From Candidatus Micrarchaeota archaeon CG1_02_47_40 (lineage in GTDB: Archaea > Micrarchaeota > Micrarchaeia > Anstonellales > CG1-02-47-40), in contig MNVE01000009.1 in NCBI GenBank assembly GCA_001871475.1, forward strand, positions 85,120 to 149,119: 64,000 nt of DNA. The letters are read 5' to 3'. Made by a program: the position numbers and the translations under genes. The notes under the pieces are model-generated. The model searched no databases. It was not told the DNA's origin and saw only the letters and a list, made by a program, of their open reading frames with translations. Positions 748-52,461 of the stretch are shown one piece after another; within the stretch, counting starts at the first letter, position 1, and each line of letters starts with the position of its first letter.

Positions 748-766
748 TATATCAATGAGATGAATA

Positions 767-2242: not shown

Positions 2243-2996
2243 AAGGAGTTTTTACCCTGTTTGCGGAAGGAGAATCCCTTGGCTGGGAAATTCCGAACTC
2301 CTCAAATTTTTCCGGGCGGTTCCGAATGACGCATCTCATTCTTGAAAGCGCCTTTTCTATTATCGGTTTTATCCTCTCCTTTGGAAGGCTGTAGCGTTCT
2401 CCTATTTCCTCATAAGTCAGAGAATGTGTTTGCCCTATCCCAAAATATAATGTGACGATTTCCCTTTCTCTTTCTGAAAGCGCCAGCATCTTGCCAAGCT
2501 TGATTTGCACAACCTCTTTTCTCTCGCCAAGAAGGAGATTGAAATCAGGCGAATCGGTTTCGTAGGCAGGCACAGCGATTGCGTTTTTGCCTCCTGGATC
2601 GTTTCCTTGAAGTTCCGCTAATCCCTCTTGCATACTCTGTTTAATCCAATTCACCGCGTATGTTATGAATTTGGTTCCTGACGTTTCATCAAACCTTCGT
2701 GCGGCTTTTTGCAGCCCAAGGTAAGCCTGAGCAAACAAATCCCATACGAACTCTGGATTCCCTGAAGCAAACGCTTTTTTGTATGTTATGTCCGCTGCAA
2801 AGCGCAGGTTGTGCAGAACCAACGGCTGAAGATTGCCTCTCCTTGCGCTTATGGCTGCTTCTTTCTCCTGTTCGAGGGTTAGAATAGAGTATGTTTTATC
2901 TCTCATAAGCTTCCGTCGAAAGGTGAGAAAGCGATTGAGTTGCGTCTGCTCCCCTTTGCTAAATGCCGCAAAGTCAACGAGTTGCCCCTTCTTCAT
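1959..2996 (-). CDS. Bacterial-type sigma-70 family protein (regions 2 and 4); its 3' tail overlaps the convergent M42 gene by 284 nt
   Basis: Region 2: DLFAQAYLGLQKAARRFDETSGTKFITYAVNWIKQSM. Region 4: LSEREREIVTLYFGIGQTHSLTYEEIGERYSLPKERIKPIIEKALSRMR. The last ~95 aa are low-complexity and antisense to the M42 gene. Confidence 0.7.
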   Translation of the reverse strand: MKKGQLVDFAAFSKGEQTQLNRFLTFRRKLMRDKTYSILTLEQEKEAAISARRGNLQPLVLHNLRFAADITYKKAFASGNPEFVWDLFAQAYLGLQKAARRFDETSGTKFITYAVNWIKQSMQEGLAELQGNDPGGKNAIAVPAYETDSPDFNLLLGERKEVVQIKLGKMLALSEREREIVTLYFGIGQTHSLTYEEIGERYSLPKERIKPIIEKALSRMRCVIRNRPEKFEEFGISQPRDSPSANRVKTPSTLLPSSLSPLPIPASSPHQTKRTPAHLSVCISWERIKRLKECLPAHYKQKPHQSRPLLSLQAGISLSLFLRFPLPLSAIACRQHCPCQMPLLP

Positions 2997-3070: not shown

Positions 3071-3275
3071 CGCCTAAACCTGCCCCGCTCTTCTTGAGAA
3101 TCTTCGCCTAACCTAAATCTTTTTCTGCATCTCCCTCTAACTTATATCTTCAGCATCTTCCCTAAATCGTCTTCAGCATTTCCCCCTAACCTAAATCTTC
3201 TTTTGCATCTCTTCCTAATCTAAATCTTCTTCACCATCTCTCCCAAACCTACAGCTTCTTCAGCATTTCCCCTAC
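3071..3275 (-). repeat. About 6 degenerate tandem copies (24-34 bp) of the giant gene's last ~27 nt, each retaining ATG..stop
   Basis: The gene ends GGG GAA ATG CTG AAG AAG CTG TAG (GEMLKKL*). Downstream minus-strand copies read MVKKI* (3220-3237), MQKKI* (3191-3208), MLKTI* (3162-3179), MLKI* (3142-3156) and MQKKI* (3113-3130). One further decayed copy lies at about 3071-3104. Confidence 0.8.
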
Positions 3276-6200
3276 CTTCTTCTCAAGGGATTCCAAGTAG
3301 ATTTCCACAACCTCAAAGCTTCCCTTATTCAGTTTGTCCCGCGCAAGCTTAAGCTCAAGCTCAACGTCAAACACGTCCACTTCCTTTGCCTTTAACTTTT
3401 CCATCCCTTCTATTACTTTCATTATCCTTTCATTATACAGATGGTATTTCTCAAGCGCCTTATCTGAAAGCCTAACAATAGAGTGCAAAAGCGGCCTAAA
3501 AAGCACGAAATACGGGTTCCCCCTGTTGAATTCGGCATTCTGCAGCATCCCCACACCGACAGGCGCCTTCACTATGTACTTTAGTATCTCCTCCCCGTAT
3601 TTCATCTTTATCCTGTTCAAATCCTCCTCGTATTTGGTGCGAAGCTGGACTTCGGTTGAGATGTTTGTTTTTATCTCCCCCACGAAATCGGAGAGCACCT
3701 GCGAAACAAGGAGCATCCCCACCCCCCATTTGCGGAATTCACGCACGGAGCGCTCTATGTTCTTGAAGCCCGCCCCCGTTCCTCCGAATTTCGGCAAGAG
3801 GCGGTGCACTTCATCGAATACAATCAGTAGGCGCAATTCCTTTGACTCCTCAAGGTTAAGCGCAAACACTTCTTCTATCGTATTTGCGACTATCGTCTCT
3901 ATGTCCACTGATTTGAAGTTGTTGAGCGCGAATATCGTTATCTCCCCGGGCTTCATGAGCTCCTTTATGTTTATCTTGCGGTTGGGGTCCTTTACTATGA
4001 ACACGTTGCCCGGAAACGCGCACGCGTCCGAGGCATTCATGCCAAAGTCCTTGTACAATGACAGCATCTCCTTTACGCTGTTTTTGCGCAAAAAGCCGGT
4101 CCACTGCGCTGTCGGGTCAAACACCACAACAGATATTTTCTTTTTGAGGACCTCTTCCACTATATCCTGCGCAGCAACGGTTTTTCCGCTTCCTGAAGCG
4201 CCTGCCACAAGCGCGTGCATTACCAATTTGTCAACCGGGAAGGCGGCGCGCACGTTTGTTTCAGCCACTTTTCCCAAAAAGGCAGCCCTCTCGTCAAATT
4301 TGGGCAGTTTTGAGAAGTCAATTTTCACAAGGAAGCGCTTCTTCTCCTTCTCCATCCTCTTCCACATCGCGTACCCCCCTGCCGCAAGCACGACTGCAAA
4401 GAGAAATACGAAAAGCGGAGTCAGGGAGCGGCGCACGTCTATGGTGGAAATGGAGGTTGCTTCTCTTGAAAGCCCGCTTGAAACCGGGTAAGTTGCAACC
4501 GCGCGCAGCACGTATTTCCCTTCAGGAGTGTCTGCAGGCACGTCCATTGTCTTTATGCTTGAGAGTGATGTTTCAATCGCAAGCGCCTCCTCAAGCTCCG
4601 CGACTATTTTCTCGTTCTCCTGCTGGATAAGCTGCACTTTGAGCTGTGCGTCCACCCTGCGCGCCTCCCCTAAATTATAAATGTTTGTTTCTATGCGGAT
4701 TTTCCCGCCGGGCTCAACCGTGCTGTCAATTGGCTGTATCTTCAGGTCAAGAAGCCTGTCCTTTAGCTGGAGCACGCGCAGGTTGAAGGGAACCTGTATC
4801 CTTCCGCCTGCTTCGTTTTCAAACTCTATTGAGCCGTAATAAACGCCCGGCTTTGTGTCGGCAGGCAGTGAAACAAAAAGAGCCACTTCGCTTTCCGCAT
4901 ACGGCTCAAGCGTTATCGAGCTCTGCTCGGAATAAACATAGGATTTTATGTTGCCTGCCGTTTGTATGCTGATTGTGGAGGTTTCGCCAAGCGTGTTCTT
5001 TATTGTGGTGGAGGTAGTTGTTTCCTCTCCAGGGTAGAGCTCAAAGTAGATGCTGTTTGTCATCGTCTCCATTCCCTCCGTGGAAATGTTCGCGCCGGAG
5101 CGCATCTTTTCCGATAGGTTCTCGTACATCTCCTGCAGAAGCGAGAGCTGTTGGTTGAATTCCTCCGAGTCTGGCTGCATTCCCTGCAGTTCGTCTATCT
5201 TGTCCTGTATCTCCTGCAGCTGCGCCTCGCTTGCGCCCTCCACGTTGGTGGTGGAATAAGAAGATGAGCCGCCGCTGCTTCCGCCGGTTGTCACGCTTAC
5301 CGTCTGTGTTGTCACCGGACAGTCCGCAGGGCAGTTTGCGCTTCCCTCCCCGTATGCGGAGTGGCAAACCCCGTCCCCGCAGATGTATTCCGCGGCAGCG
5401 TAGGCGGAGAAGCTGGAAATGTTCGCGGTGATTTTGTGGTTCAGCCTATCCACGGAAACCGAAGTCAGCCTTTCCCAGCCGGAAGTGCAAAGGCGGGTGG
5501 CAAAATCCCAGGTGGAGCACTTGTAAAGCCCCACATTTGACTCGGAGGCATAGGAGGTGCCGGAATAATCCATTGTGATGCTGCCGCCAGTGTAGTTGGT
5601 TGAAATGTTTGTCAGCGTTACTGCGGTCAGCGCCCCCCCTCCCACGTAATTCGGAGTCAGGCTGTCAATGCTGAAGAGGCTTGAAACGTTCTGCGACATG
5701 TTCACGCCGGTTAATGTGATGCTCTGCCCGAATGCCTTTATCTGCAAATTCACTATGTTCGTGGCATTCACGGACTGGTTGAAAATGCCGGAAGTGTTGA
5801 ACACGAACATCACGTTGGAGGCATTGTCAAGTATCCATATCTCCACCGTGGGCGTGCTGCCGTTTGCGCTTGTGAAGTTGCCGGCAATGTAAGCCCCCTG
5901 CATGACGTTGAAGGTGGAGGAGTTCGTCCCGTTCAAGCCGGAGGTGTCGTTTGCCCATGCACGAATGGTGTACATGCCATATTCGGCGTCGATTGTGGCA
6001 AAACTGTTGGTGTAATAGGGAGCAGAGTAGGTTAGAGTAAGATTGTCAACCGTTCCGTTGGGATGGGTAAGGTTGGCGGTTATGCCTGAAACACCGGCAT
6101 TGTCGCTTGGGAGAAGGGAAATTGCGACCACTGCGCCCTTGTAAGCTGACGCGGCGCTTATTATTATTGAGGGCGGCGTGGTATCGGTGTAGATGACTGC

Positions 6201-9200
6201 GCCGGCTTCGGTGTCCGCGCCGCCATAGCCTCCATACTGCGCCTCAACCACTATGCTGTTGTTAAGGGTAGTTATATCCGGGGCGAGGCATGAAATCAGC
6301 CATGCGGAGGTTGAATATGAATAGGATGGAGAAGTGCAGTCCGCTCCGCCTACTGCCGCACTCCAGGTTGCCCCGCTTGTCAGTTCGGCTCCCTCAAGAT
6401 AGGCATTTGCGCTTATGTTGAGGGTTGCGCCGGGAATTATTTCTGCTGCGGGCAAAGACGAGTTTGGAGAGGAAACCAGCACGGTCATGTTGATTACGCG
6501 CAGGGTTGCATTAAGGGTCAGCGAAGCGGGGGAGGCGGATGCGTTTGCAATGGTTATGCCGACAGTCATGTTCCCCGGAGCGGTCGCGTTTGAGTATATC
6601 CTTATGGTATGGGAGGTGGAGTTTTTGGGAATCTGGATATCTGTTTCATTTGCATACGCGCTTGTATCGTTTGTGGAGGAATTCAGGCGCAGGTTAACGT
6701 TCCCGTTGTTGTATATTCTTGCGTAGCCTATTGTGGTTTCGCCGGTGCCGACCGTTGCGTTGAAGAATGTCTGGTTTATGCTCCAGCTTGCGTTGGTCGG
6801 CACAGTAACCTGCAATTGCGCCGTCTTGTTTGAGATGCCGTCCCCGTATGCGATTATGTTCGCAAGGTATGTGCCTGGCGCATGGGCATAAGGTATGGAC
6901 ACGTTTATATTGACAGTTTCAATGCCTCCTTGTGCAATTGAGGCGATATATGCGGGCGCCATCGCCGTATCCGCCATCTCGCATATCGTGCCCGAGGAGC
7001 ACACGGCATAGATGTTAAGCGCGGTTCCGGTCCCGCTTGAGGTTATGGTGAAGTTTGTCCTTCCGGTCGCGTTGTGCTGGACGGACAGGGAGTCTATGCT
7101 GGACAGGGAGATGTCCGGCTGTCCGCTCGTCGTGACGGTTTCCCCAAGCATATACGCCGTTTCCCCGTCCGTGTCGGAGAACTGCGAAACGTTCGCATAC
7201 ACTCTGTCATAGACCTTGTCCACTACCGTGGTAAGCATGCCCCACGTGCCAGAGCAGGTTTTGGTTGAGAAATTCCATCCGGCGCACTTGTACATCTTTA
7301 TGTATTCTTCCGCTCCGGAAAGCTCTCCGCTGTCAAATGAGATGGATATTGCCGCGCCCCCGGTGAAGTTGGTGCGCACCCCTATGCCGTTCACCCCGTT
7401 CACCAGGCTGGATTCCCATTTGCCTATCCTGTCAAAGTCAAGCGAATCCGAGTAGGAGGAAAGCTCTATTTCCTGCAGGGTTATGTTCATGCTCATCTGC
7501 GAGGAGAAGACAACCGCGTCGTAGGTGCGCGAGTGTATGACGGCGCTGTATGCCCCGTTTGAATTTGTTGAGAAATTCTGCAGAACCTGCGAGGTGGCGG
7601 GGCGGTAGAGAGTGAAGCCCGCTGACACGGGCTGGCTGGATGAGTTCTTTATGTCGCCTGCGAAGCCTGCGTCCGTCCATATCTCAAAGTAGCCGGAGGA
7701 GGTGTTGGAATTGCCCTGCGCATCGGAAATCCAGTAATAAACATCATAATCGCCGACTGACAGCCCGCTCATGTTGAATTCATATGTGTAATTGTAGGAG
7801 TGATTTACGGTTATGTTCTGCGAAAGCACGTATGCCTTTACAGTGCTGACATTGACGTTGTCGCTTGCATTAATCTGGAAGAACGCGCTTGTCCCTGAAA
7901 TGTTTATCCTGCTGGCTAAAAACGCCGGCAGTGTGATGTCCAGGTAATGCAGGGAGGATTGCGTGGTGTTTGTTATGAGTATGTCCATTGTGCTGTAATT
8001 TGCGATAACTGTCAGGTTGTGCCACTGCCCGTCGTTTGCGCTTGGGGCGGTGCAGTTTATCTGCCAGAGGTTCTGCCCTGAAAAGTTCGCGTATGCGGAC
8101 ACGGGGCAGCTCGTTCCATTTACCTGCACGCTGAAGGTTGCGTTCTCGTTTACGTAGTCGTCCCCCGCAAGTATGGTGGCGTTTATGTATATCGTGTCTC
8201 CTGCGCTTATATTGACCTGCTTTACAGTTGAATTCGGACTTATGTTCATTGAGCCTACGAAAACCCGATAATCTATCGGAATTGTGTAGTTGAGGGTGGC
8301 GCCCTCGTGGGTTTCGTTTAATGTCAGATTGCCGTAGTAGCTTGCCGGCTCGCCTGGAAGGGAGTAAGTGATGTTCAGGGTGTAGTTGGTGCCTGCCAGG
8401 ACAGTCTGGCTTGCGTCTTCAAGAACGAATATGCCCGTAGCGTTCCCGCTTAAGTTGAAGAGGAATGCCAGATTTTCATTTCCGTTGTTGCTTATTGTCG
8501 TGGCAAGGGTTCCGGCTGCGTTGATTACGTTTGAGGTGTTTATACTGCTCCTGCTGACCGTCCAGTTGTAATCAGCCAAAACGTTTATTGTTGAGGTGAA
8601 CTGGTGGCTGGCGCCTTCCGTGGAAGTGGCATTGAGGTAGAGGTTGGGGTATGCCCCGGTCGCCTTGCCCGCGGAGGCAGTAAGCGTTACCGTAATCGGT
8701 TTTGCCTGCCCAATCCCAAGCGAGAACAGGGCGCTCTCGTTGAAGGCTACGCTGAATGCGGTGCACTGTGCGCCGGAGCAGGTCAGGTTTATTCCCGAAA
8801 CGTTGCTGATTCCGGTTGAATTCACTATAAGCGTGAAGTTTGAACTGCTTCCCTGCGAGATGTTCGCCGCCGATGGGAACTGCAGGAGCAATTCGGGATT
8901 CCCCTGCACGCTGACAGTTATGTCAGCAGTATAATTGGTAAAGTTGCTCCTGTCGGGATTTGTCCATCTGATATATGGAGTCACATAATATGTGCCGGGC
9001 TCCGTGCCTGCCGGGATTGTGATTGTTATATTCGCATATTGCTTTGAGTTGTTCGTTATGTTTGTGAAATTGCATATTGTGGAGCCCCAGCTGGAATTTG
9101 AGGGAAGTCCGTATCCGGTCGCGTTTATCGCGGTTCCATAGCCGGTGTTGTTTGCGGATATTTCAAAGGAGAAAGTTTTCGGGGAGGATTGGCTCATTCC

Positions 9201-12200
9201 TGAAATTACTGCGGTGGTGATGTTTGAGCCGGCTCTCATGCTCGTGTTCCCATAGACTATGAAGAGGATGCTGCCATTTCCGTATTTGTTTCCGGTGTCA
9301 GGCACGTGGACTGAAATGTTGTAGGCGCCCCCCCATTGAGGCGTGTAGAGGCAGTAGAAGCTGTTTAGGAGCCCTACGCGAGTGGCTGAAACTTTTTCTG
9401 TCGCAGAGTTCAGGGTGAAGTTGCAGTGGACGTTATTGTAGTCTATCTGTGTCTGGTCGTCGGAAGCGGAGAAATTCACGCGGATTTGGATGTTGGCGTC
9501 TGTTACGTTTATCGGGGCGTAGTTGGAAGCGTTAGTTATGTTTATCTGCGGCGCGACTACTGGAGGCTGGTCTTCCACCACAAGATACATTGTCGTGTAG
9601 TTTGTTGTTGGAGAGGCGCTTGTGTTTGTGAGAGTGATGTTCAGAGTCCAGGAGCCGGTTATAAGCGAGCCGATGAAATTGGGCGTCAGGTTGTAAGATA
9701 CTCCTGCCGGCACCTGTATTGCTGATGGGTTGCTCTCCGGGTCCACCGCTGTCCCGACAAAAGAGCCTGTGTAGCCGATTGTGAAATTCAGCTCCACGTT
9801 CCCGGTGTTGTTTATGCGCGCTGTTCCAAGCGGGGCAGTGGATTGAGTCTGGTCTATTGCGCTCGTATTCGTCTGATTGAAGGGGGAAAGGTTCCATGTC
9901 AGGGACGCGGGCACGCTTATGCTTATGTTTATGCGCACGTCGTTCCCGTTTGAGATGTTCAGGTCAAAATGCCCGGTGTAATTGCCCGGCGCGTAATGCG
10001 CAGGGACGGTTATGTTCAGCGAGAGGTTTGTGCGCTCCCCCACCCCGAGGCTTGCGATTGCGGCGGGCGCGAAAACAAACCAGCCCGTGAGAGCGGTTTC
10101 CTCAATGTAGGTTATTTCGGTGTCAACTATTTCCGCGTTTCCAGTGGAGTTCAGCGAGATGTTGAATCTGTCTGTCTCCGAGTGGTTTATGCTCGTGTTC
10201 AGCAGTTCAATGGTAGTCAGGATGGGATTGCCGGTTATGGATATGGGAAGGGCTTTTTCAGCCAAATTTCCTATTGTCAGGTCGTTGTTGGTGAATCTTC
10301 CGTTGAAGTAGATGTAGTAGGTCGCCTGGGGGGTAAGCTCATCCACGGTTATGTTGAAGGAAACAACGCAGGTTCCGTATGAGTAATTTATGGATTCGGT
10401 GCAGTTCTCGGTGCTTGTGACGGCGTTTATGTATTGCGAGTAGGTGTTGGTGGAGTTTGAAACGTTTGCCAGATGGGCTTTTCCGCTGCCGGTGTCGTTC
10501 AGGGTTATATTGTATATGAAATAGTAGCCCGGGGAGAGGTCGGTAATTGAGATTGGCGGGAGCGTTGAGCCGGACAAGACCATTGAAACCGTTGTAGTCG
10601 CCACGGTGCTCATCTCAAACCTTGAAGAGTTTGAGTGCCTTGCCGTATCGTTTGCGTATATTGTTATGTTGTAGTTGCCCGCGCTTGGAGCTGTTAAAGA
10701 GCAGGAGTGGGAGTTGCCGGCTCCCGCGTCAGCAGTGTAATTCACACCGTTCTGCTCGCAGAGCACGCTTGAGAGCGCGATGTTTTCGCCTATGTCAAAT
10801 GTCACGGTGTAGGAAGAGCTGGCAGAAGTGTAATTGTAAGCATTCAGCCCGCTTGTGGAAACGTTCTCCACGCGCGGGGTGTCGTTGTCCACAGTAATGT
10901 TCGTTATATTCGTAAGCACAATTCCCTGTATGGAAACGTTCATGTAAAGAGAGTAGTTGCCAGGTGCGATATTCGTCAGGTTGGTGGTGTTTGTATAGGT
11001 TCCTTCAGAAGGATTTGCAAGATTAAGTGAAAATACGGAACAGCCGGAAGGCGCTGTCCTTGCGCCTATGCACGCAAAAATCGCGTCAGCCGGCTCATTG
11101 CCAAGCCCGGCATTGTCAGTGGCAAGGGTTATTGTCGTGCCCATCCTCTCCGCGGAATCGTAGCTGCTCCTGTTTGTCGCAAGGGAGGGATAATACTCAA
11201 AGAGAGTAATGTTCTTTGTGGCGTTGGCTGTCCTTGCCGCCTCGGTTATGTTCACGCTTATGTTGTATTCTCCCGACGCATAGCGGAAACTGCTGAAAGT
11301 CCAGGAAACGTTTGTGGCGTTGAAGGTGTAATTATACCTGCCTGTTGAGTTTGTCTGCGGGGGACCGGCAGGCGCCATGTTGGAATCTGCCACCTGCGTT
11401 CCGTTGAAGAATATGGCGATTGCCTTGTTCAGGATGAGGCTGTCGCCGAAGGTCGCTGTTCCATTTACAGAAACATTCGCTCCTTTCACCACGAAAGAAG
11501 GCACCGCCGTAATGGTTATCACAGCTCCGCAGGTGCTGCCGGCATAAACCGCATTTCCGGTTCCGGAATCAGAAACAGTTGAGCCGGAACTGCCGCAGCC
11601 GAAGTTTTCGTAGGTGAATTCGGTCAGGTTTATTGGATTGTTTATTGTGTTGTTTTCAATTTGGGACAGGGAGGTGTTCGCGGTTTCGGATGTGCCGTTT
11701 AAGTAGAATGAGTTTATTGTCGCACTTACCGCGTTTCCGACCAAAAAGACGCTTTTCGTGTTCCGCATGTAGAAGCCGTATGCGCCGCTTATGGTGTTGT
11801 TTGTGAAGTTTGAATAGTTGGAGGAAAATATGTAGGTGGAATTGCCGGAGGTTGAGACAGCTGAAAGGTTTTCAACGAAGGAGTATGGAGAGGCAAAAAG
11901 CGCAAGAGCCGAGCCTGTGCCGGACGAGGCACTGCCTCCTGCAATCACACTGCCCGAACTTTGATTCAGGAGAATCCCTGTTCCGCTTGTGGAGGAGCTG
12001 ATGCTGTCTGCTATTGAGTTGTTTGAGCTTCCGTTTATGTATATTCCGGAGCCGGAAACGGAAGTCGCGTTTGAATTCGCTACGAGATTCAGGTTTTCAG
12101 GGCGGAGGTAGCTTATTGAAACGTCATTAAGCACCGGGCTGGAGGATATGTTTGACGTGTTGAAGCTGAACTTGTACTGGAAATACCTGTTTTGGGAAAG

Positions 12201-15200
12201 GTTCAGGAAGTTGTAGGTGGCATTTTCATAGCCTTCTGTCCAGGATTCGCCGGAGCATTCAGCGTCGTCGCAGGAGCGGGCGGACATATTTAGGCGATAG
12301 GCTCCCCTCTGGTACATTGTGACTATTTCGGTCGGCGTCAGGGCGCGGTTGAATGTCGCAAGCTCGTCTATCCTGCCGTTGAAAAATACGCCTGCATGGT
12401 AGGTGCCGCTGCCGCTGTTTCTGCCAGGGCATGCTCCGACAAGCTGGATTATAACTGGCCTTGGGTCAAAATTTGTCATCCATCCTACGTAGATTCCATT
12501 GACATATGCATAATAATTAGTGACCCTGCGCAGGCATATATGCGACCATTTATTTACGGGCACGTAACTATTATACTGTATCTCGGGAGTAGCAGCACCG
12601 TTTGTCACATACGCGGAGCCCTTGTCAAATCGCAGAGCCCAACTGCCTTCTTGCCAGTTTGACGCTCCGTAGATGGTCTGGGCGGCATTGTCGGAGGTAG
12701 GGTATATCCAGGCGCAGATTGTGAAGGCTGCGGTCGCCGAAATCGGACCGCCGGAAGTGGTAACCCGGACATAATCATTTCCGTCAAAACTGCCGGCATA
12801 GCTGCCGAATTTGGATGAGTTTGTGAATGTGGCGCCAAAAGCAGTCGGGTTGTACCCGGAACTGCTGGTATCCGTCCAGGCGTTGTTCGTGTGAATCAGC
12901 AGGGTATTTCCGCCCATGTTTGCCCCGCCCTGGACGGTTTCAACCTGCCTGTTGTCCGGCAGTTCTTCCCCATAAGGGAATGCCTCGCTCCAGTTTGCGG
13001 ATGTCCAGTTCACGGCTGTTGAGCCGTCAAATATCCTTGAGGTGTAGGTTCCGTCGCTTGTGTACTGGGAGCCGGCAGGGGTCAGGGTTATGTTGCCGCT
13101 TTGGCTGGCTATGGAAACGCCGGCAGGCGTTCCAAAGGCAAAGTCTGCCTGGCTGGTTTCGGAGAAGGAGTTTGCCTGCCCGTTGATTTCAATCGCAGGC
13201 GAGCCGACGGCGTTTGCATATGAAACGTTTGCCAGATACGTGCTGAATAGGCGGACGCCGGCTCCTGCGGTTGAAGTCGCATTTGAGTTTTCCAGCAGGC
13301 TGTAAGCCCCGCCGAGGAGGACTGCCGTGCCGTTTGCATTTGAAACCGCAGAAGAGTTTATTATGAGGCTGCCGGAATTGAGGGGAGCTGACTCGGAAAT
13401 GAACATCCCGTACCCGTTTGAAATCCCATCCCCATACCTTGAGGTGAAGGCGCTTGTGTTGAGCACTGTAGAGCTGCCTGCCGTAGAGTAGATGCCGGTT
13501 GAGTAATTCTCTATTCTGCAATTCAATATAGTGGTGTTGAAGGAATCTGAATAAATCCCGTAAGTGTTTGTGGTGTTTGTGCCGTTAAGGATGAAACTGC
13601 TCCCGCAGTCTATGGTGTTGTTTCCCAGGTTGTTTGTCAGGTTGTAGGCTGATTTCGTGTTTGAGGAGGCATAGGTGCTGTTGAAGAGGTTGGAGGAGGA
13701 AGAGCTTGCGATAATTGCGTCTTGCGAATTGGAGATGGCTGATGAGCCGATGATTTGAGTGTAGTTTGAGCCAGTGGAGAGGCAGATGCCATAGCCGGAG
13801 GTTGAGGTGAAGTTTGAGTTTGAGATTGTGTTGTAGTTTGCACTGGCGCGCAGCAGTATTCCTTTTCCGTTTGCGTCCGTTTCATCTCCGGACCTCGTAG
13901 TGAATGCGGTTGTGTCGGTAATGGTTCCGTTGTCTGCGCCGTTTAAGTATATTCCGGTTGAGAAATTTTCTATTCTGCAGTTTTGTATGGTAGTGTTGAA
14001 TGAGATTGAGTAAATCCCGTAAGTGTCCGTGGCGTTGTTTCCGTTTAACATGTATCCCTGGCAGTCAAGGGTTATGTTTTCTGCCGTGATGTTTATGCAC
14101 CCTAATGAGGCGGAGGTTGAGAAGGACTCGTTAAGGACGTAGCTCCTTCCGCTTATGTTAAGATTCGTGCAGCTGCGTATGTTTGTGGAAACGAACAGCA
14201 CGGAAGTTGTGTTCCTTCCAACCACTCCGTACGCGCCGCCTATGTTGGTGGTTTCATTGAAGTAGGTGGAATTCACTATCAGGGTGTAATTGCCTGGTTC
14301 GGTTGGCACTGTGAAGGAGGAATTGTAATGCCCTGTGTCGTTTGTTGTCCCGCTAACGGCAAGGGTTTCATACCCGTTCCAATCCTTCAGGTAAACGTCA
14401 TACGCATAGCCTGACAGATTCGTCCTGTTCATGTAGTTTGAATACCTGTTCGTGAAGTTGAATTTTCCGTAAACGAAAACCTCGTCGCCGGCGAACATGG
14501 CGTTTGTGTTGAGGGAGATTGAGGCGTTCAGGAGAGGGATTGACTGGATGGGCGCGGAGTCCGAGGAGGCGGAGCCGTTCCACTTGGTTTTTGTGCTTGC
14601 CTGATATGGGAGCGCGCCGCCTATTGAGGCGTCCGCGTAATTGTCCGCATTCGTATCCAGTATGTTGGGCCAGTATGAGTTGATGTCGTCGTAGTAGTTT
14701 CCCCGGTCTACAGCCCCGACGGTTTCCTCAAAGTCGTTTCCCGAAGTCGCATGGGTGTTTACATAATATGTGCTTGCGTTAAGCAGGTAGTTGCCGTATA
14801 TGTAATTGCTGTTTGCCTCCAGCCGGATGCTCGTGTTCCCGCCTTCTATCGTGTTGTTGATGATTGAGTTGTATAATGCGGAGTTGATGAGGCGGATGCC
14901 GGTGGCGCTGGAATTTTTCAGTATGATGTGGTTGTTGGTTATGTTTGTGTACCTGTAGTAGTAAAGGTAGACTGCCGGATTTGCCGAATACGAGGTTATC
15001 TTGTTATTGGAGAAAACGTCATGGGTTATTATGCTGCCCGTATCGTGGGCAGAGGAGATATACAGCGCGGAGCTTTCGTTTGCGGTAAAGTTGTTGTAGG
15101 AGACGTTGCTGTCAAAGAACATGGAGGTATGCATGCCGTAGCCGGTTGCGCGGATGGTGTTGGATTTTATAGTGTGGAAGGACGCATTTGAGTTGCCGCT

Positions 15201-16967
15201 GTAATTGGAGTAGAAGGCGGTTCCGTTTGAGTAGATATTATTGCCGGTGATGTTGTTGCTGCTTGTTAGATTGTTGAAGTATATTGCGTAGCCGCTGTTG
15301 GTGTTCTTGTAGAAGGTATTGTCCCTGATGGTGCTGTAATTTGCCCCGTGGAAATGCGCCCCGTAGTAAAAGCCGCTTATGATGCAGTTTCGGATGGTGG
15401 TGTTTGTACCATTTGAGTAGACAGCTGACGCGCCTGGAGTTGTTTCGCCGGTGTTGGTGATGGTGTGCCCCTGGCAGTCTAATGTAATATTCTCTCCTGT
15501 CACGTTGAAGCAGGTGCCTCCGCTGTTTGGGTCGGCGTTGAGGTAGAAGATTTTATCCCGAACGTCGGGGAAGTTTGCAAGCGCCTGGCAGCCGGAGATT
15601 ATTTCCACCGCCTCACCTGAATTGTATCTTGCGCCGATGGGACCCCAGTCATAATAGCCTCCCGATAGGGAATAGGGATAGTCTCCTCCTATGTCTCCGT
15701 AGTTGTCAGCAGGAGAATAGTCATAGATTTCCTTTGTCAGTATGTTGTCGTAGTAGTTTCCTTGCGCTGTTCCTCCTGCTGTTGTGTTGAAGGTGTTTGA
15801 CGCACCGCCAAGATTGTATATGTAAGTGGAGGCGCGGTAAAGGTAATTGTGGAAGATAGAGTTGTTGGTTGAATCAGATGAAGGTATGTAGATGCCATAG
15901 GTTGAGGCATTTATAGTTGTATTTCGTATTATAGTATTGTTTGAACGGGTGGTGATGAGGATGCCGGCGCTGGAGGTGGAGGTGAATGTTGAGTTTATGA
16001 TTGAATTGTTTGAGCTGGAGTGGACGACGATGCCGGCGCTGATGGTGGAGGTGCCGGTTGAGTTTATGATTTGATTGTAATTGGAATTGGAGATGAGATA
16101 GATAGCGGGATAAGTAGAAGTGCCGGTTGAGTTTATGATTGAGTTGTTTGAGCTGGAGGTGAGGTAAATGCCGTAGCTGGTGTTGGAGGTGCCGGTTGAG
16201 TTTATGATTGAGTTGTTTGAGCTGGAGGAGAGGCTGATGCCGAGACCGGTGTTTGAGATGCCCATTAGGTTTATTATGTTGTTGTTTGAACTGGAGGAGA
16301 GTCCGATGCCGGGGCTTATGCGGGCTGAGCCATTGGAGTTTATGATTGAGTTGTTTGAGCTGAAGGTGAGGAAGATGCCACTGCTGGTGTTAGAGGTTCC
16401 TGTTGAGCCTGTAATGTTGTTGTTTGAGCTTGAAAGGAGGTTGATGCCCTGTTGAGAGTTTGAACTGCCTGTTGAGTTTATGATTTGGATGTAGTTTGCA
16501 TCTTTTAGGCTGATGGCGGAGGAACCGGAGGCTATATCTGCAGAAACATTTTGTATACGCCCGTTGTCGGCATAATAAAAATAGATGGCATAGTAAAACT
16601 CATTTATTTTTATATTTTTCACAGTCGTGCCGGAAACTGTTGAATAAACGCCGTAGCTTGAAGCCGCGCCTGTTCCATTTACATCATGCCCCTGCCCATC
16701 CAGCACCACGTTCACAGCAGTTACGGTAAAGCAGGTGGTGCTTCTGCCGGTTATATCTGCCGTAAGCGTGTAAGTTCCCGCCGTGTCCAGCGTCTGGCAG
16801 GTGGAGATAGGTCCCGGAGTGCTTGCGAAAAGGGCGGGAGAGAGCAAGAGGAATAGGAAAATCAGCGACTTCCATTTTCTCCCGTTTAGCATGAGAAGAA
16901 ATGAGTTTAAGATATTTATAAGGCTTATTATAAAAAAGTCCGAAGACTTTTTTAGACTTGACTGCAA
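3249..16967 (-). CDS. Giant (4572 aa by ORF) surface protein: signal peptide, beta-helix/LamG/Ig-like sequon-rich ectodomain, one TM, cytoplasmic P-loop ATPase. Probable real start is Met26 at 16892.
   Basis: Uninterrupted 13.7-kb ORF. KWKSLIFLFLLLSPALFAS is a signal-like segment. 22-23 aa periodic IINSTGTSN-type repeats (PbH1-like). Very dense N-x-S/T sequons. C-terminal TM plus Walker A/B. A TATA-like box lies ~28 nt upstream of the ATG at 16892. Confidence 0.9.
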   Translation of the reverse strand: MQSSLKKSSDFFIISLINILNSFLLMLNGRKWKSLIFLFLLLSPALFASTPGPISTCQTLDTAGTYTLTADITGRSTTCFTVTAVNVVLDGQGHDVNGTGAASSYGVYSTVSGTTVKNIKINEFYYAIYFYYADNGRIQNVSADIASGSSAISLKDANYIQIINSTGSSNSQQGINLLSSSNNNITGSTGTSNTSSGIFLTFSSNNSIINSNGSARISPGIGLSSSSNNNIINLMGISNTGLGISLSSSSNNSIINSTGTSNTSYGIYLTSSSNNSIINSTGTSTYPAIYLISNSNYNQIINSTGTSTISAGIVVHSSSNNSIINSTFTSTSSAGILITTRSNNTIIRNTTINASTYGIYIPSSDSTNNSIFHNYLYRASTYIYNLGGASNTFNTTAGGTAQGNYYDNILTKEIYDYSPADNYGDIGGDYPYSLSGGYYDWGPIGARYNSGEAVEIISGCQALANFPDVRDKIFYLNADPNSGGTCFNVTGENITLDCQGHTITNTGETTPGASAVYSNGTNTTIRNCIISGFYYGAHFHGANYSTIRDNTFYKNTNSGYAIYFNNLTSSNNITGNNIYSNGTAFYSNYSGNSNASFHTIKSNTIRATGYGMHTSMFFDSNVSYNNFTANESSALYISSAHDTGSIITHDVFSNNKITSYSANPAVYLYYYRYTNITNNHIILKNSSATGIRLINSALYNSIINNTIEGGNTSIRLEANSNYIYGNYLLNASTYYVNTHATSGNDFEETVGAVDRGNYYDDINSYWPNILDTNADNYADASIGGALPYQASTKTKWNGSASSDSAPIQSIPLLNASISLNTNAMFAGDEVFVYGKFNFTNRYSNYMNRTNLSGYAYDVYLKDWNGYETLAVSGTTNDTGHYNSSFTVPTEPGNYTLIVNSTYFNETTNIGGAYGVVGRNTTSVLFVSTNIRSCTNLNISGRSYVLNESFSTSASLGCINITAENITLDCQGYMLNGNNATDTYGIYSISFNTTIQNCRIENFSTGIYLNGADNGTITDTTAFTTRSGDETDANGKGILLRASANYNTISNSNFTSTSGYGICLSTGSNYTQIIGSSAISNSQDAIIASSSSSNLFNSTYASSNTKSAYNLTNNLGNNTIDCGSSFILNGTNTTNTYGIYSDSFNTTILNCRIENYSTGIYSTAGSSTVLNTSAFTSRYGDGISNGYGMFISESAPLNSGSLIINSSAVSNANGTAVLLGGAYSLLENSNATSTAGAGVRLFSTYLANVSYANAVGSPAIEINGQANSFSETSQADFAFGTPAGVSIASQSGNITLTPAGSQYTSDGTYTSRIFDGSTAVNWTSANWSEAFPYGEELPDNRQVETVQGGANMGGNTLLIHTNNAWTDTSSSGYNPTAFGATFTNSSKFGSYAGSFDGNDYVRVTTSGGPISATAAFTICAWIYPTSDNAAQTIYGASNWQEGSWALRFDKGSAYVTNGAATPEIQYNSYVPVNKWSHICLRRVTNYYAYVNGIYVGWMTNFDPRPVIIQLVGACPGRNSGSGTYHAGVFFNGRIDELATFNRALTPTEIVTMYQRGAYRLNMSARSCDDAECSGESWTEGYENATYNFLNLSQNRYFQYKFSFNTSNISSSPVLNDVSISYLRPENLNLVANSNATSVSGSGIYINGSSNNSIADSISSSTSGTGILLNQSSGSVIAGGSASSGTGSALALFASPYSFVENLSAVSTSGNSTYIFSSNYSNFTNNTISGAYGFYMRNTKSVFLVGNAVSATINSFYLNGTSETANTSLSQIENNTINNPINLTEFTYENFGCGSSGSTVSDSGTGNAVYAGSTCGAVITITAVPSFVVKGANVSVNGTATFGDSLILNKAIAIFFNGTQVADSNMAPAGPPQTNSTGRYNYTFNATNVSWTFSSFRYASGEYNISVNITEAARTANATKNITLFEYYPSLATNRSSYDSAERMGTTITLATDNAGLGNEPADAIFACIGARTAPSGCSVFSLNLANPSEGTYTNTTNLTNIAPGNYSLYMNVSIQGIVLTNITNITVDNDTPRVENVSTSGLNAYNYTSASSSYTVTFDIGENIALSSVLCEQNGVNYTADAGAGNSHSCSLTAPSAGNYNITIYANDTARHSNSSRFEMSTVATTTVSMVLSGSTLPPISITDLSPGYYFIYNITLNDTGSGKAHLANVSNSTNTYSQYINAVTSTENCTESINYSYGTCVVSFNITVDELTPQATYYIYFNGRFTNNDLTIGNLAEKALPISITGNPILTTIELLNTSINHSETDRFNISLNSTGNAEIVDTEITYIEETALTGWFVFAPAAIASLGVGERTNLSLNITVPAHYAPGNYTGHFDLNISNGNDVRINISISVPASLTWNLSPFNQTNTSAIDQTQSTAPLGTARINNTGNVELNFTIGYTGSFVGTAVDPESNPSAIQVPAGVSYNLTPNFIGSLITGSWTLNITLTNTSASPTTNYTTMYLVVEDQPPVVAPQINITNASNYAPINVTDANIQIRVNFSASDDQTQIDYNNVHCNFTLNSATEKVSATRVGLLNSFYCLYTPQWGGAYNISVHVPDTGNKYGNGSILFIVYGNTSMRAGSNITTAVISGMSQSSPKTFSFEISANNTGYGTAINATGYGLPSNSSWGSTICNFTNITNNSKQYANITITIPAGTEPGTYYVTPYIRWTNPDRSNFTNYTADITVSVQGNPELLLQFPSAANISQGSSSNFTLIVNSTGISNVSGINLTCSGAQCTAFSVAFNESALFSLGIGQAKPITVTLTASAGKATGAYPNLYLNATSTEGASHQFTSTINVLADYNWTVSRSSINTSNVINAAGTLATTISNNGNENLAFLFNLSGNATGIFVLEDASQTVLAGTNYTLNITYSLPGEPASYYGNLTLNETHEGATLNYTIPIDYRVFVGSMNISPNSTVKQVNISAGDTIYINATILAGDDYVNENATFSVQVNGTSCPVSAYANFSGQNLWQINCTAPSANDGQWHNLTVIANYSTMDILITNTTQSSLHYLDITLPAFLASRINISGTSAFFQINASDNVNVSTVKAYVLSQNITVNHSYNYTYEFNMSGLSVGDYDVYYWISDAQGNSNTSSGYFEIWTDAGFAGDIKNSSSQPVSAGFTLYRPATSQVLQNFSTNSNGAYSAVIHSRTYDAVVFSSQMSMNITLQEIELSSYSDSLDFDRIGKWESSLVNGVNGIGVRTNFTGGAAISISFDSGELSGAEEYIKMYKCAGWNFSTKTCSGTWGMLTTVVDKVYDRVYANVSQFSDTDGETAYMLGETVTTSGQPDISLSSIDSLSVQHNATGRTNFTITSSGTGTALNIYAVCSSGTICEMADTAMAPAYIASIAQGGIETVNINVSIPYAHAPGTYLANIIAYGDGISNKTAQLQVTVPTNASWSINQTFFNATVGTGETTIGYARIYNNGNVNLRLNSSTNDTSAYANETDIQIPKNSTSHTIRIYSNATAPGNMTVGITIANASASPASLTLNATLRVINMTVLVSSPNSSLPAAEIIPGATLNISANAYLEGAELTSGATWSAAVGGADCTSPSYSYSTSAWLISCLAPDITTLNNSIVVEAQYGGYGGADTEAGAVIYTDTTPPSIIISAASAYKGAVVAISLLPSDNAGVSGITANLTHPNGTVDNLTLTYSAPYYTNSFATIDAEYGMYTIRAWANDTSGLNGTNSSTFNVMQGAYIAGNFTSANGSTPTVEIWILDNASNVMFVFNTSGIFNQSVNATNIVNLQIKAFGQSITLTGVNMSQNVSSLFSIDSLTPNYVGGGALTAVTLTNISTNYTGGSITMDYSGTSYASESNVGLYKCSTWDFATRLCTSGWERLTSVSVDRLNHKITANISSFSAYAAAEYICGDGVCHSAYGEGSANCPADCPVTTQTVSVTTGGSSGGSSSYSTTNVEGASEAQLQEIQDKIDELQGMQPDSEEFNQQLSLLQEMYENLSEKMRSGANISTEGMETMTNSIYFELYPGEETTTSTTIKNTLGETSTISIQTAGNIKSYVYSEQSSITLEPYAESEVALFVSLPADTKPGVYYGSIEFENEAGGRIQVPFNLRVLQLKDRLLDLKIQPIDSTVEPGGKIRIETNIYNLGEARRVDAQLKVQLIQQENEKIVAELEEALAIETSLSSIKTMDVPADTPEGKYVLRAVATYPVSSGLSREATSISTIDVRRSLTPLFVFLFAVVLAAGGYAMWKRMEKEKKRFLVKIDFSKLPKFDERAAFLGKVAETNVRAAFPVDKLVMHALVAGASGSGKTVAAQDIVEEVLKKKISVVVFDPTAQWTGFLRKNSVKEMLSLYKDFGMNASDACAFPGNVFIVKDPNRKINIKELMKPGEITIFALNNFKSVDIETIVANTIEEVFALNLEESKELRLLIVFDEVHRLLPKFGGTGAGFKNIERSVREFRKWGVGMLLVSQVLSDFVGEIKTNISTEVQLRTKYEEDLNRIKMKYGEEILKYIVKAPVGVGMLQNAEFNRGNPYFVLFRPLLHSIVRLSDKALEKYHLYNERIMKVIEGMEKLKAKEVDVFDVELELKLARDKLNKGSFEVVEIYLESLEKKVGEMLKKL
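3252..4361 (-). other. C-terminal cytoplasmic P-loop NTPase domain of the giant protein (HerA/FtsK/VirB4-like, DUF87-like)
   Basis: Walker A VAGASGSGKT at nt 4179-4202 (checked on DNA). Walker B LLIVFDEVH at about nt 3804-3830. Followed by FRKWGVGMLLVSQ and a coiled-coil tail. Confidence 0.7.
4362..4424 (-). other. Single predicted transmembrane helix separating the ectodomain from the ATPase domain
   Basis: LTPLFVFLFAVVLAAGGYAMW followed by the positively charged KRMEKEKKRF (positive-inside rule puts the ATPase in the cytoplasm). Confidence 0.7.
12300..12810 (-). other. LamG / concanavalin-like jelly-roll domain inside the giant protein (approximate bounds)
   Basis: GSFDGNDYVRVTTSGGPISATAAFTICAWIYPTS...WSHICLRRV...FFNGRIDELATFNRALTPTEIVTMYQRG is a typical Laminin_G_3 pattern. 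Confidence 0.6.
15770..16790 (-). other. First parallel beta-helix (PbH1-like) repeat block of the giant protein (approximate); the DNA shows 66-69 nt tandem periodicity
   Basis: Repeated ...SSSNNSIINSTGTSNTS.GI.L... units. The DNA unit ggtgccggttgagtttatgattgagttgtttgagctggag recurs between about 15950 and 16460. Confidence 0.65.
16912..16925 (-). promoter_or_regulatory. TATA-box-like element for the giant gene
   Basis: The minus strand reads ATAATAAGCCTTATAAATATCTTAAACTCATTTCTTCTC-ATG(16892). CTTATAAATA lies ~28 nt upstream of the ATG, suggesting a short or absent leader. Confidence 0.4.
16932..16953 (-). terminator. Symmetric A6/T6-flanked hairpin, possibly a terminator for the upstream ATPase gene
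   Basis: AAAAAAGTC-CGAA-GACTTTTTT: a 9-bp stem with an oligo-T run on either strand. Confidence 0.4.
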
Positions 16968-17084: not shown

Positions 17085-18368
17085 TCAGGATAATTTCAGA
17101 AGAAGGAAAACGTCCAGGGGAATATAGCGTATAATCTTTCCGTTTATCTCCTTCTCGTCAAAAAGCTCCTTTGTCACCATAATCCCCTCTTTCACCTTAT
17201 ACTGTTTCATGTAATAAAGAAGATTGGCAGTGTCCTGGCTCGTGATTGCAGACTGATACTTCACTTCTATTGGAAAAGAGGTTATGAAGTCCACCTCTCT
17301 TTTTTGAGAATCCCTGTAGAAGGCAGTTTTCATACAGCTCAACTTGTCATAAACGGCAGTTTCAGCCGACTGCCCAAGGGAAGGGCTCTCGCTGATTGCA
17401 TTGTAAATGGATGCGGTTTTGGTAAATATTTTTTTCTGCTTCTTCAGAGCCTTCTGAAAAGAGCCTCTTGAATAGAGTATATCCACAAGATATGCCTTTT
17501 GAAGATAAAGAAGATAGTCTGAAACCGCATGACGGCTCATCTGGAGCGCCTCGGCAAAATTCACTTCAGTATAAAGCTGGGAGGAATTTGCCGCGCATAG
17601 TTTGAGCAAATCATATAATTTGGAAGGATTATCTATCCGAAAAGTGTATGGAATGTCATCAAATACGATTTTCTCAATAGTGCTTGTGCGTATATAACCA
17701 GAAGCGGTTTTTTCATCCATCGTTACTATTTCGGGGAACGAGCCCTTTTTGAGGAATTCTTCTGCATCCTCCCTATGCCTTTTTTTCACCCTGAAAGCGT
17801 CTTTTAGCTTCGGGGTTTCTGGCGCCTCTCCTTTCATCTCAATATACTCATCAAACCGCAGAGGAGGGACATAATGCTCAAACAATCTGCCGCTCAAACT
17901 TTCCACTCCCTTTTTTATCATCAGCGAGGAAGAGCCGCTTACGATGAATTTTGCCTTTTTTTGGTCATGGTATCGTTTCAGCACTCCAGCCCAATCCTCA
18001 ACCCTGTAAATCTCATCAAGCGCTATGGTTGGATGTTCGGACTCATTTGTGAATACTTCCAGCACGTTCTTCAGTGTTTCCGTATTGACGTATTTTTTCT
18101 CGTCAAAGGAGAAATAAAAGGAGTTTTCTCCAAGAAGCTGTTTTATGAGCGTGCTTTTGCCGACTCTCCGCAAACCAGTGATGGCGGTTATAAGCCCTTT
18201 CTGAAGGCTTTCTTTTATTTCTGAAAATACCTTTCTTTTATATTCCGGAACTTCCTCCCTGCCTCCGGTATTTATCTGGGAAAAGTCCATTAGCTCCTTC
18301 TTCGTGGGTATTGCCATGTGTTCTTTTAAGAGCACAAAACTTAAAAATGTGTCCTTAAAGGGGCGCAA
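17085..18368 (-). CDS. AAA+ ATPase with a C-terminal PD-(D/E)xK-like module (COG1373 / AAA_14 + DUF4143-like); probable start at Met18, position 18317
   Basis: Walker A ITGLRRVGKSTL, Walker B IALDEIY, C-terminal REVDFITSFPIEVKY (D...ExK). The codons upstream of 18317 lie in the repeat array. Confidence 0.75.
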   Translation of the reverse strand: MRPFKDTFLSFVLLKEHMAIPTKKELMDFSQINTGGREEVPEYKRKVFSEIKESLQKGLITAITGLRRVGKSTLIKQLLGENSFYFSFDEKKYVNTETLKNVLEVFTNESEHPTIALDEIYRVEDWAGVLKRYHDQKKAKFIVSGSSSLMIKKGVESLSGRLFEHYVPPLRFDEYIEMKGEAPETPKLKDAFRVKKRHREDAEEFLKKGSFPEIVTMDEKTASGYIRTSTIEKIVFDDIPYTFRIDNPSKLYDLLKLCAANSSQLYTEVNFAEALQMSRHAVSDYLLYLQKAYLVDILYSRGSFQKALKKQKKIFTKTASIYNAISESPSLGQSAETAVYDKLSCMKTAFYRDSQKREVDFITSFPIEVKYQSAITSQDTANLLYYMKQYKVKEGIMVTKELFDEKEINGKIIRYIPLDVFLLLKLS

Positions 18369-21182: not shown

Positions 21183-21186
21183 TTCC

Positions 21187-52321: not shown

Positions 52322-52461
52322 GCCCCCATAGTTTAGCGGATAGAATGGAGGCCTCCGGAGCCTCTGACCGGAGTTCGAAACCTAAGGGGGGTTCCACCCC
52401 CCTTAAGGTCTCAACCCCCCCCAAAGAACGTGGGTTGGTACTGAAAATCTCCGTGGGGGCG
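52322..52461 (+). tRNA. tRNA-Arg (CCG) with a ~68-nt intron in the T-loop
   Basis: GCCCCCA-TA-GTTT-AGCGGATA-GAAT-G-GAGGC-CTCCGGA-GCCTC-TGAC-CGGAG-TTCGAAA-[intron, about 52381-52448]-CTCCG-TGGGGGC-G, then TTTTT. The mature length is 72 nt. Confidence 0.8.

Follow-up and report, generated by a model that had tools for sequence, protein, structure and literature searches.

The window analysed here is a stretch of 64,000 nucleotides from Candidatus Micrarchaeota archaeon CG1_02_47_40 (contig MNVE01000009.1, positions 85,120 to 149,119), which originates from a short-read groundwater metagenome assembly. Its minus strand contains an open reading frame (ORF) of 4572 codons (3249..16967) that begins with TTG and has no internal stop codon; judged from the base composition, the log10 probability of finding no stop over this length is about -87. 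The frame encodes a giant protein, in which a signal peptide, a very long ectodomain and one transmembrane (TM) helix precede a cytoplasmic P-loop ATPase. Our analyses suggest that this Micrarchaeota protein belongs to SPEARE, a family of giant surface proteins of DPANN archaea, and that its motor is nearest to HerA. An earlier note made from the DNA letters (the original prediction) had already described the uninterrupted frame, a signal-like N-terminus and a single hydrophobic helix followed by an ATPase with Walker A and Walker B motifs. All three features were found again, the second by hydropathy and the third by hydropathy, AlphaFold models and the invariance of the motifs.

The gene probably starts at codon 26 (ATG, window position 16892), because this codon is the sole Met among the first 60 codons, begins the signal-like sequence MLNGRKWKSLIFLFLLLSPALFAS, lies about 26 nt downstream of the TATA-like sequence CTTATAAATA and was also chosen in a public gene call. 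The probable true extent of the gene is thus 3249..16892 (minus strand, as for all of its features given below), with a stop codon at 3249-3251 and a product of 4547 aa, identical to that public gene call; another public record gives the TTG start and 4572 aa. Protein positions in the following refer to the 4572-codon frame. The putative signal peptide (aa 26-49; 16821..16892) was recognized in a hydropathy scan by a K/R-containing n-region, an h-region and a c-region of small residues. There is strong support for a Sec-type signal peptide, which would export about 4130 aa of the giant protein.

The ectodomain begins with a distal head of four tandem right-handed beta-helix modules (aa ~50-1300; 13068..16820), each of which starts with a similar Cys-containing cap and continues with 23-aa coils rich in N-x-S/T sequons. 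The 23-aa period is also visible at the DNA level as a 69-nt tandem repeat of 6.8 copies (15936-16407), and a chunked self-search of the protein disclosed internal repeats within the head (aa 43-194, 457-549 and 921-1081 resemble each other, as do aa 967-1078 and 1119-1259). The Pfam families Beta_helix (2.5e-33) and NosD (1.7e-29) matched the ectodomain across six to seven stretches. The four modules are followed by a LamG or concanavalin-like jelly roll (aa 1395-1548; 12324..12785), detected by Laminin_G_3 with an E-value of 1.8e-17 and 64 bits, which is above the family cut-off, and by a fifth beta-helix module (aa ~1628-1761; 11685..12086; Beta_helix, 1e-8). Thus, Pfam and the tandem repeat bore out the beta-helix repeats and the LamG domain of the original prediction. 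That the beta-helices of the head and the LamG domain represent carbohydrate-binding or adhesin-type folds is strongly supported.

Between aa ~1800 and 3860 (5388..11570) the protein continues as a stalk of about 2100 aa, which is composed of beta-rich repeat modules and heavily decorated with sequons. The chunked self-search revealed super-repeats in this part as well (aa 2206-2460, 2649-2895 and 3278-3480; aa 3174-3281 and 3768-3870). Weak Pfam matches to NPCBM_assoc, Big_7 and PKD hint at an Ig-type character of the stalk modules, and the Ig-like segments reported in the note were present in the form of these weak matches, besides two confident beta-sandwiches closer to the membrane (see below). 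The giant protein contains 242 sequons, 238 of which are located within aa 51-3950. Composition-preserving shuffles of the latter region yielded 107 +/- 8 sequons, so that the high sequon density stated beforehand corresponds to a 2.2-fold excess; beyond aa ~3900 sequons are nearly absent. Moreover, 45 Cys residues lie on the outer side of the TM helix versus one on the inner side. Because the sequon excess is restricted to the distal ectodomain and the Cys residues are distributed in this way, we concluded that the N-terminal part is situated outside the cell. The ectodomain fibre is probably heavily N-glycosylated, as judged by its sequons.

The stalk is followed by a Cys-knot motif, CGDGVCHSAYGEGSANCPADC (aa 3863-3883; 5319..5381), which is shared with giant homologues: the pattern CG[DN]GxC..E..CxxDC is located 306-350 aa ahead of the ATPase in 33 of 62 of them. 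Adjacent to it we read an S/T/G-rich linker (aa 3884-3911; 5235..5318), at the position of which stand-alone members of the family carry a signal peptide. On sequence grounds, motif and linker separate the variable giant part from a conserved core, and they could act as a hinge or a processing site. In the proteomic study of 2019, the ecto and the TM/cytoplasmic parts of a SPEARE protein were recovered in separate size fractions (PMC6642349).

The C-terminal module (~640 aa) was modelled by AlphaFold with a pLDDT of 92 as a helix, two beta-sandwiches, the TM helix, an alpha/beta ATPase and a three-helix tail. Its membrane-proximal extracellular part (4434..5168), which aligns with homologues of 670-740 aa, comprises the helix (aa 3934-3956) and the sandwiches (aa 3961-4065 and 4073-4178), both of which are confident in the model. 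These approximately 270 aa are almost free of sequons and rich in K and E, unlike the remaining ectodomain. The single TM helix (aa ~4182-4209; 4341..4424) coincides with the Kyte-Doolittle maximum of 2.05 and with a helix at model residues 255-280; its limits are aa 4176-4203 according to the hydropathy scan and aa 4184-4209 (26 residues) according to AlphaFold. It is directly followed by KRMEKEKKR, in agreement with the positive-inside rule. The only other hydrophobic stretches are the signal-peptide region and one weak segment of the ectodomain (aa 3601-3619). Hydropathy, charge rule, sequon distribution and the structure model strongly support the giant protein being a type I membrane glycoprotein. 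The tail (aa 4502-4571; 3255..3464), which was seen in the AlphaFold models and is conserved in homologues, is the counterpart of the 'coiled-coil domain at the tip' described in PMC10266531.

The cytoplasmic ATPase (aa 4228-4490; 3498..4286) exhibits the Walker A motif AGASGSGKT (aa 4255-4263; 4179-4205), the Walker B motif LLIVFDEVH (aa 4380-4388; 3804-3830) and the block ER..REFRKWG.G...SQ (3699-3755), all of which are invariant in 61-67 homologues. As the catalytic motifs are intact and invariant, an active ATPase would be expected. The Pfam families DUF87 and HerA_C both scored above their cut-offs. In a PDB profile search, HerA proteins were retrieved at 5e-11 to 2e-7 and the HerA-like protein YjgR at 3e-6, whereas other ring ATPases gave values between 0.06 and 0.9 (DotL 0.06, FtsK 0.23, TrwB 0.46). 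A model of the ATPase alone (pLDDT 93, pTM 0.91) was compared by Foldseek, in which HerA relatives filled the top ranks (TMq 0.51-0.56); TcpA (0.43) and FtsK (0.42) formed a second tier, followed by DndH-C and a viral packaging ATPase. The HerA models of PADLOC matched at 1e-15. From the profile, fold, Pfam and PADLOC results together we concluded that the motor is a HerA-clade member of the FtsK-HerA superfamily. As far as sequence and model comparisons tell, the ATPase is nearest to HerA and not to VirB4/TraG or to a restriction enzyme.

The best matches in both sequence and fold were HerA structures of HerA-NurA (4d2i, 9x1m), SIR2-HerA (8wiv/8woc) and DUF4297-HerA (9c1m/8zis), with which the ATPase shares, in the PDB profile alignment, the Walker A context h-G-x-TGSGKT, the DE of Walker B and an ER..E.RK.G..L..SQ block at 13-19% identity. 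Unlike HerA, which is soluble, the giant protein is membrane-anchored; it lacks the N-terminal HAS-barrel and has in its place the TM helix and the ectodomain, with about 25 residues between the TM helix and the first ATPase strand. Furthermore, no NurA, SIR2 or DUF4297 partner was found among the window genes scanned, the neighbours being a sigma-70-like ORF and DUF4143 ATPases. We also considered an anti-phage HerA system and rejected it, since PADLOC HerA matches are at the domain level only and no partner effector is present. A match to NCBIfam CedD, limited to the P-loop region, reached 28.6 bits against a cut-off of 600 and thus does not speak for membership in the Ced system. FtsK/SpoIIIE and the coupling proteins TrwB, TcpA and DotL are membrane-anchored ring translocases of the same superfamily and second-tier fold matches. 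As in the arrangement proposed here, their membrane anchor lies N-terminal to a ring ATPase in the cytoplasm, which pumps a polymer through or at the membrane, but their relationship by sequence is far weaker (E 0.06-0.9 versus 1e-11 for HerA). They also possess two to five TM helices with little outside the cell, whereas the giant protein has a single TM helix and 4100 aa of ectodomain. No conjugation or division context was found in the flanking genes and larger ORFs of the window that were scanned.

In 2019, the cytoplasmic part of SPEARE proteins was read as a type III restriction enzyme (PMC6642349), which in that proposal degrades imported DNA, while a protease and toxin-like pore-forming parts of the ectodomain breach the host envelope. 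The P-loop region of the giant protein indeed yielded matches to ResIII (21.8 bits) and DEAD (19.2 bits), but both remained below their cut-offs (22.5 and 26) and reflect only a generic P-loop, whereas DUF87 and HerA_C pass. Pfam and NCBIfam scans across all 4572 aa disclosed no nuclease, protease or toxin family, so that the protease and nuclease domains of the 2019 description were not recovered. The re-analysis of 2023 likewise reported no endonuclease domain and disputed protease and nuclease for the whole family (PMC10266531). Since, in addition, the 2019 protease was confined to the Candidatus Nha. antarcticus protein, we did not count these two domains as defining for the family. For the protein studied here, a restriction-type enzyme with an envelope-breaching ectodomain is very improbable.

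A search with aa 4150-4572 retrieved 482 proteins of 45-59% identity, whose labels are Altiarchaeales, Woese-, Pace-, Nano-, Aenigm- and Micrarchaeota and whose only names are DUF87, HerA-like or DUF853. In the stand-alone full-length members (670-740 aa), a signal peptide is joined to exactly the C-terminal module of the giant protein, the last 640 aa of which align end to end with full-length homologues. The first search had returned homologues of up to 738 aa, and the notion that the giant form is exceptional was rejected by extension of ORFs and by an exhaustive profile search. A scan of one genome per species gave at least 583 core loci, of which the 80 best were retrieved and the ORFs around each match extended. 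Nearly all of the 80 are labelled DPANN, and Micrarchaeota are the closest. Giants prevail among the extended frames. About 30 of the loci contain an ORF exceeding 3000 aa, most of these being cut by the 10-kb flank; complete giants have 3933, 3671, 3553, 3530 and 3430 aa. Short forms belong mainly to Altiarchaeota or are second tandem copies. In locus L002 a giant of 3995 aa (22-10023) is directly followed by a core-only copy of 726 aa (10001-12181), and in L003 a second giant gene lies downstream (17182-21933, plus strand); these paired genes match the 'second ATPase downstream' reported for nanohaloarchaea. The exhaustive profile search against 1.84 billion representatives produced 487 clusters at E <= 1e-30. 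Of the best 150 clusters, 60 reach at least 2000 aa and 23 at least 4000 aa, the longest protein having 6253 aa, and the core is invariably located at or near the C-terminal end of its carrier. Hence, the survey of related genomes for the order ectodomain-TM-ATPase, which had been recommended in the note, revealed a widespread architecture. The suggestion that the source organism is a reduced-genome, possibly episymbiotic archaeon fits as well: like the ATPase, the PolB encoded in the window is closest to Micrarchaeota (best named matches in Anstonellales, Micrarchaeia, with at most 66% identity).

Conservation along the protein follows a clear gradient. The core (aa 3900-4572) was matched in 79-82 of 82 loci and the stalk (aa ~2100-3900) in 36-61 at 25-30% identity, while the head (aa 1-2000) found a counterpart in no more than six (0-6). 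Because of this gradient we view the giants as composed of a fixed core and a semi-conserved stalk, to which variable heads are added. Comparison of the loci strongly supports that the distal ~1750 aa, i.e. the five beta-helix modules and LamG, are lineage-specific. Family-wide, the number of sequons per 100 aa decreases from 4-10 in the distal part to 0-2.6 in the proximal and 0-1 in the cytoplasmic part.

These data also bear on the question of whether the long frame is an artefact, i.e. an assembly chimera, or two genes, one for a secreted adhesin and one for a TM-ATPase of about 700 aa, that were fused by a sequencing error. A short-read metagenome as the source makes such an origin conceivable, as does the existence of stand-alone versions (~680-740 aa) with their own signal peptide, the start of which coincides exactly with the junction. 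The identical giant protein is, however, encoded on two public contigs of 173 kb (ENA) and 231 kb (NCBI), the former carrying the gene call of 4547 aa and the latter the record of 4572 aa, and the same fused architecture occurs in dozens of independent genomes, with complete ORFs of 2500-3933 aa and lengths of up to 6253 aa. The junction motif keeps a fixed spacing from the ATPase in 33 of the 62 giants. By inspection of the sequence, neither a Met nor a signal peptide was found at the junction before the core, and composition and skew are even along the whole gene. On account of the no-stop probability, the two contigs, the fused homologues and the fixed motif, a chance ORF or an assembly chimera was rejected; the probability of an artefact is negligible.

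The name SPEARE was introduced in 2019 for nanohaloarchaeal proteins of up to 8553 aa that are mostly extracytoplasmic, have a TM segment near the C terminus, at least one laminin-G domain and a cytoplasmic part representing their most conserved region, and also exist in short versions of 655-717 aa (PMC6642349). In the same study, similar sequences were noticed in Woesearchaeota, Aenigmarchaeota, Micrarchaeota and Altiarchaeales, and the SPEARE of Ca. Nha. antarcticus was found to be expressed by proteomics (PMC6642349). The re-annotation of 2023 arranged the proteins as signal peptide, Ig array, TM, "VirB4/TraG-like ATPase" and coiled coil (PMC10266531). The product of the window gene is very long and has an N-terminal export signal, an extracytoplasmic part of ~4130 aa, a single TM helix on the C-terminal side and a conserved cytoplasmic part; its laminin-G domain (Laminin_G_3) is accompanied by Beta_helix, NosD and weak NPCBM_assoc, Big_7 and PKD matches. 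A link by sequence is provided by locus L046, which encodes RLG14629.1, a SPEARE match listed in PMC6642349, and whose ATPase is 56.7% identical to that of the giant protein. The ATPases of other giants labelled Nanohaloarchaea (L014, L062 and L079) showed 51-56% identity. By these comparisons, the protein would be a Micrarchaeota member of the SPEARE family, linked to it through RLG14629.1.

With NAR1_1133, SG9 AOV94740.1 and SVXNc_0300 the protein has in common the signal peptide, the giant ectodomain, the single TM helix, the P-loop ATPase and the helical tail, and with the SPEAREs of Nanohaloarchaeota laminin-G, the existence of short versions (650-720 aa) and the DPANN-wide occurrence. 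Its 4547 aa place it in the middle of the size range of the family. Differences concern the organism, a groundwater Micrarchaeota as opposed to halophiles, and the head, which contains five beta-helix modules, whereas SVXNc_0300 has WD40/PQQ propellers and approximately 75 Ig domains and NAR1_1133 protease and toxin-like regions. Unlike the published SPEAREs, the window gene is adjoined neither by a second ATPase gene nor by a coiled-coil partner gene. The existence and general design of such proteins are thus already known, and the assumption that a non-standard, new design had been encountered did not hold, since SPEAREs were named in 2019, re-annotated in 2023 and are common in DPANN genomes. 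New in our analysis are the HerA assignment, the model of variable heads on a core, the Cys junction motif, the glycosylation-site-free collar and the frequent coiled-coil partner. As a point that would speak against it, the note had listed that the architecture might belong to an already characterised family; this applies by half, as the design is indeed described and, according to proteomics of Ca. Nha. antarcticus, expressed, while the mechanisms put forward for it are proposals. A 2025 preprint still says only that SPEAREs are surface proteins "thought to" act in host invasion, for which reason we regard the family as named and described, with a function that is inferred.

The coiled-coil partner was recognized by the gene neighbourhoods. 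In 58 of the 80 loci, the ATPase gene is followed by a gene for a cytoplasmic coiled-coil protein of 245-788 aa, which with few exceptions shares its strand and in most cases is its direct neighbour (e.g., L006:12086-13690, L004:4404-6299 and L046:6384-7427). Pfam and PDB profile searches assigned it to no Pfam family and gave solely generic coiled-coil matches (tropomyosin, crescentin, SMC). A secreted protein of about 1150 aa with Disaggr_repeat/CBM96 and NPCBM_assoc domains is encoded near the giant gene in 16 loci (e.g., L012:14485-18069 and L017:14537-17917, both on the minus strand); in the window it was not found.

The neighbourhoods are relevant to the proposal of 2023 that the proteins constitute a type IV secretion-like "straw" (PMC10266531), i.e. 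that their ATPase is of the VirB4/TraG secretion type and the giant protein a channel through which effectors are injected into the host. For the nanohaloarchaeal homologues it was put forward along with a second VirB4-like ATPase gene just downstream (PMC10266531, section 11), and the tandem core-only paralogue following the giant gene of L002 is reminiscent of this arrangement. A weak Pfam match to TrwB_AAD_bind over the P-loop (21.1 bits, cut-off 20.5) and the second-tier position of the coupling protein TcpA (TMq 0.43) point in the same direction. On the other hand, sequence and fold are nearest to HerA, and VirB4 is not among the best 50 Foldseek matches of the ATPase model. Pfam detected neither the VirB4 N-terminal domain CagE_TrbE_VirB nor the all-alpha domain of coupling proteins with two TM helices. 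A second copy of the ATPase was not present in the 64-kb window, where tblastn returned the giant gene alone, and in the flanking genes and larger ORFs scanned by Pfam there was no further component of type IV secretion; nor did such a component recur as a neighbour in the 80 loci, the commonest neighbour being the soluble coiled-coil protein and not a channel component. In addition, no lumen is evident in beta-helix, LamG and sandwich domains, which represent solid adhesin folds. We therefore regard a straw as unlikely.

Another explanation is that the protein serves the architecture of its own cell, as a surface coat or as a matrix or attachment fibre that is anchored, clustered or remodelled by the ATPase core and its coiled-coil partner, without any translocation. 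Core-only versions in Altiarchaeota would suit such a role, as would the long coiled-coil structure of the conserved partner, the matches of which are all generic and cytoskeleton-like. Foldseek moreover found the tandem sandwich part to resemble the biofilm scaffold protein RbmA, and a single TM helix per protomer makes a poor channel. Yet every solved relative of HerA, FtsK or coupling-protein type that matched the model is a ring translocase working on polymers. Among relatives the distal head is hypervariable, a pattern seen more typically in partner recognition than in a structural coat, and the family is concentrated in reduced-genome lineages. On balance, an envelope function of this kind appears improbable.

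We consider it likely that the giant protein is a SPEARE-type glycoprotein in which host attachment is coupled to ATP-driven translocation. By analogy with HerA, FtsK and coupling proteins, the ATPase would form a hexameric ring under the membrane, by which six TM helices, and with them six fibres, would be brought together. In glycosylated form, the fibres would reach the partner cell, where the variable beta-helix/LamG head may bind envelope glycans, and at the contact the ring would spend ATP on moving a polymer, inwards or outwards, across the membrane of the symbiont. The most likely substrate would be nucleic acid, since rings of the HerA, FtsK and coupling-protein type act in this way. 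The original prediction had envisaged a device for cell-cell contact, attachment or translocation, which is the same as the proposal made for SPEAREs in the literature and shares its inferred status. Giant adhesins of other host-dependent or predatory microbes are described as passively anchored and are not known to possess a cytoplasmic motor domain. Like the protein described here, they are large, repeat-rich and surface-exposed, occur with small genomes and are thought to mediate contact (bioRxiv 10.1101/2025.05.02.651781).

Several points weigh against coupled attachment and translocation. Ring formation, ATPase activity, substrate and location at contact sites are predictions for the whole family, which draw on analogy, and the host-binding role of the head is suggested by fold classes only. 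The assignment to SPEARE runs via RLG14629.1 and not via the type proteins NAR1_1133 and AOV94740.1. As one TM helix per protomer amounts to six per ring, the pore would be narrow or absent, and the channel may have to come from another protein; scans of the flanking genes and larger ORFs of the window disclosed no such protein. A profile search did not detect the coiled-coil partner in the 64-kb window or in the 10 kb downstream on the source contig. Finally, there are core-only versions in Altiarchaeota, and because of these forms the task of the core need not be directed at a host. To our knowledge, Altiarchaeota are not obligate episymbionts.

A more far-reaching idea, which we put forward tentatively and consider rather doubtful, is that core and coiled-coil partner make up an unrecognised archaeal membrane polymer translocase, distinct from type IV secretion, Ced and FtsK, to which DPANN archaea have repeatedly added giant, fast-evolving heads. 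If this is true, the core would be the long-sought conduit for the uptake of host nucleic acids or other polymers by DPANN archaea, and the motor would carry its own targeting fibre. How these organisms attach to their hosts and are supplied with the nucleotides, lipids and amino acids which they cannot make is an open problem, and the SPEARE family is among the few conserved, lineage-wide candidates for their contact machinery. To this family, the window gene contributes a Micrarchaeota example that is complete, has been assembled twice and bears a beta-helix/LamG head. Four properties of the family, the HerA-like motor, the grafted heads, the partner gene and the sequon-free membrane-proximal part, provide constructs and hypotheses for biochemistry and cryo-ET.

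The remaining genes of the window gave some additional observations. On the same strand, 253 nt downstream of the giant gene, an ORF (1959..2996, minus strand) encodes a sigma-70-like protein, with Sigma70_r2 (29 bits) and Sigma70_r4 (50 bits) both above their cut-offs and a PADLOC match to MzaA over the r4 part, which is odd for an archaeon. The ORF was left out of the public gene call. With its final ~95 codons it overlaps, in antisense orientation, the end of an M42 peptidase gene (1199..2242), and for this reason its stop codon may have been lost. We rejected it as the usual partner of the family, as it is sigma-70-like and bears no relationship to the genes that follow in L001 and L002. 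Immediately upstream of the giant gene, two divergent AAA_14/DUF4143 ATPase genes (17085..18368, minus strand; 18636..20102, plus strand) both match the candidate defence family PDC-S01 (PADLOC, ~1e-53). Further upstream, a small ParE/RelE-type toxin gene (20919..21305, minus strand; cf. L083 5711-5974, PF05016) is located beside a gene of 64 aa, with which it likely forms a toxin-antitoxin pair.

Pfam assigned the 19 other ORFs examined in the window to housekeeping functions, e.g., aIF5B with an intein, PolB, NFACT and a purine biosynthesis enzyme. The aIF5B/IF-2 gene (35021..38380, plus strand) is split by the intein, which contains a LAGLIDADG homing endonuclease. An archaeon should have no peptidoglycan. 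Nevertheless, a protein of 450 aa (31381..32733, minus strand) exhibits the peptidoglycan-binding domain PG_binding_1 (1.2e-10) and may be directed at bacterial cell walls. The sole tRNA found in the window is a tRNA-Arg(CCG) (52322..52412, plus strand), whose length of 91 nt suggests an intron or a long variable region.

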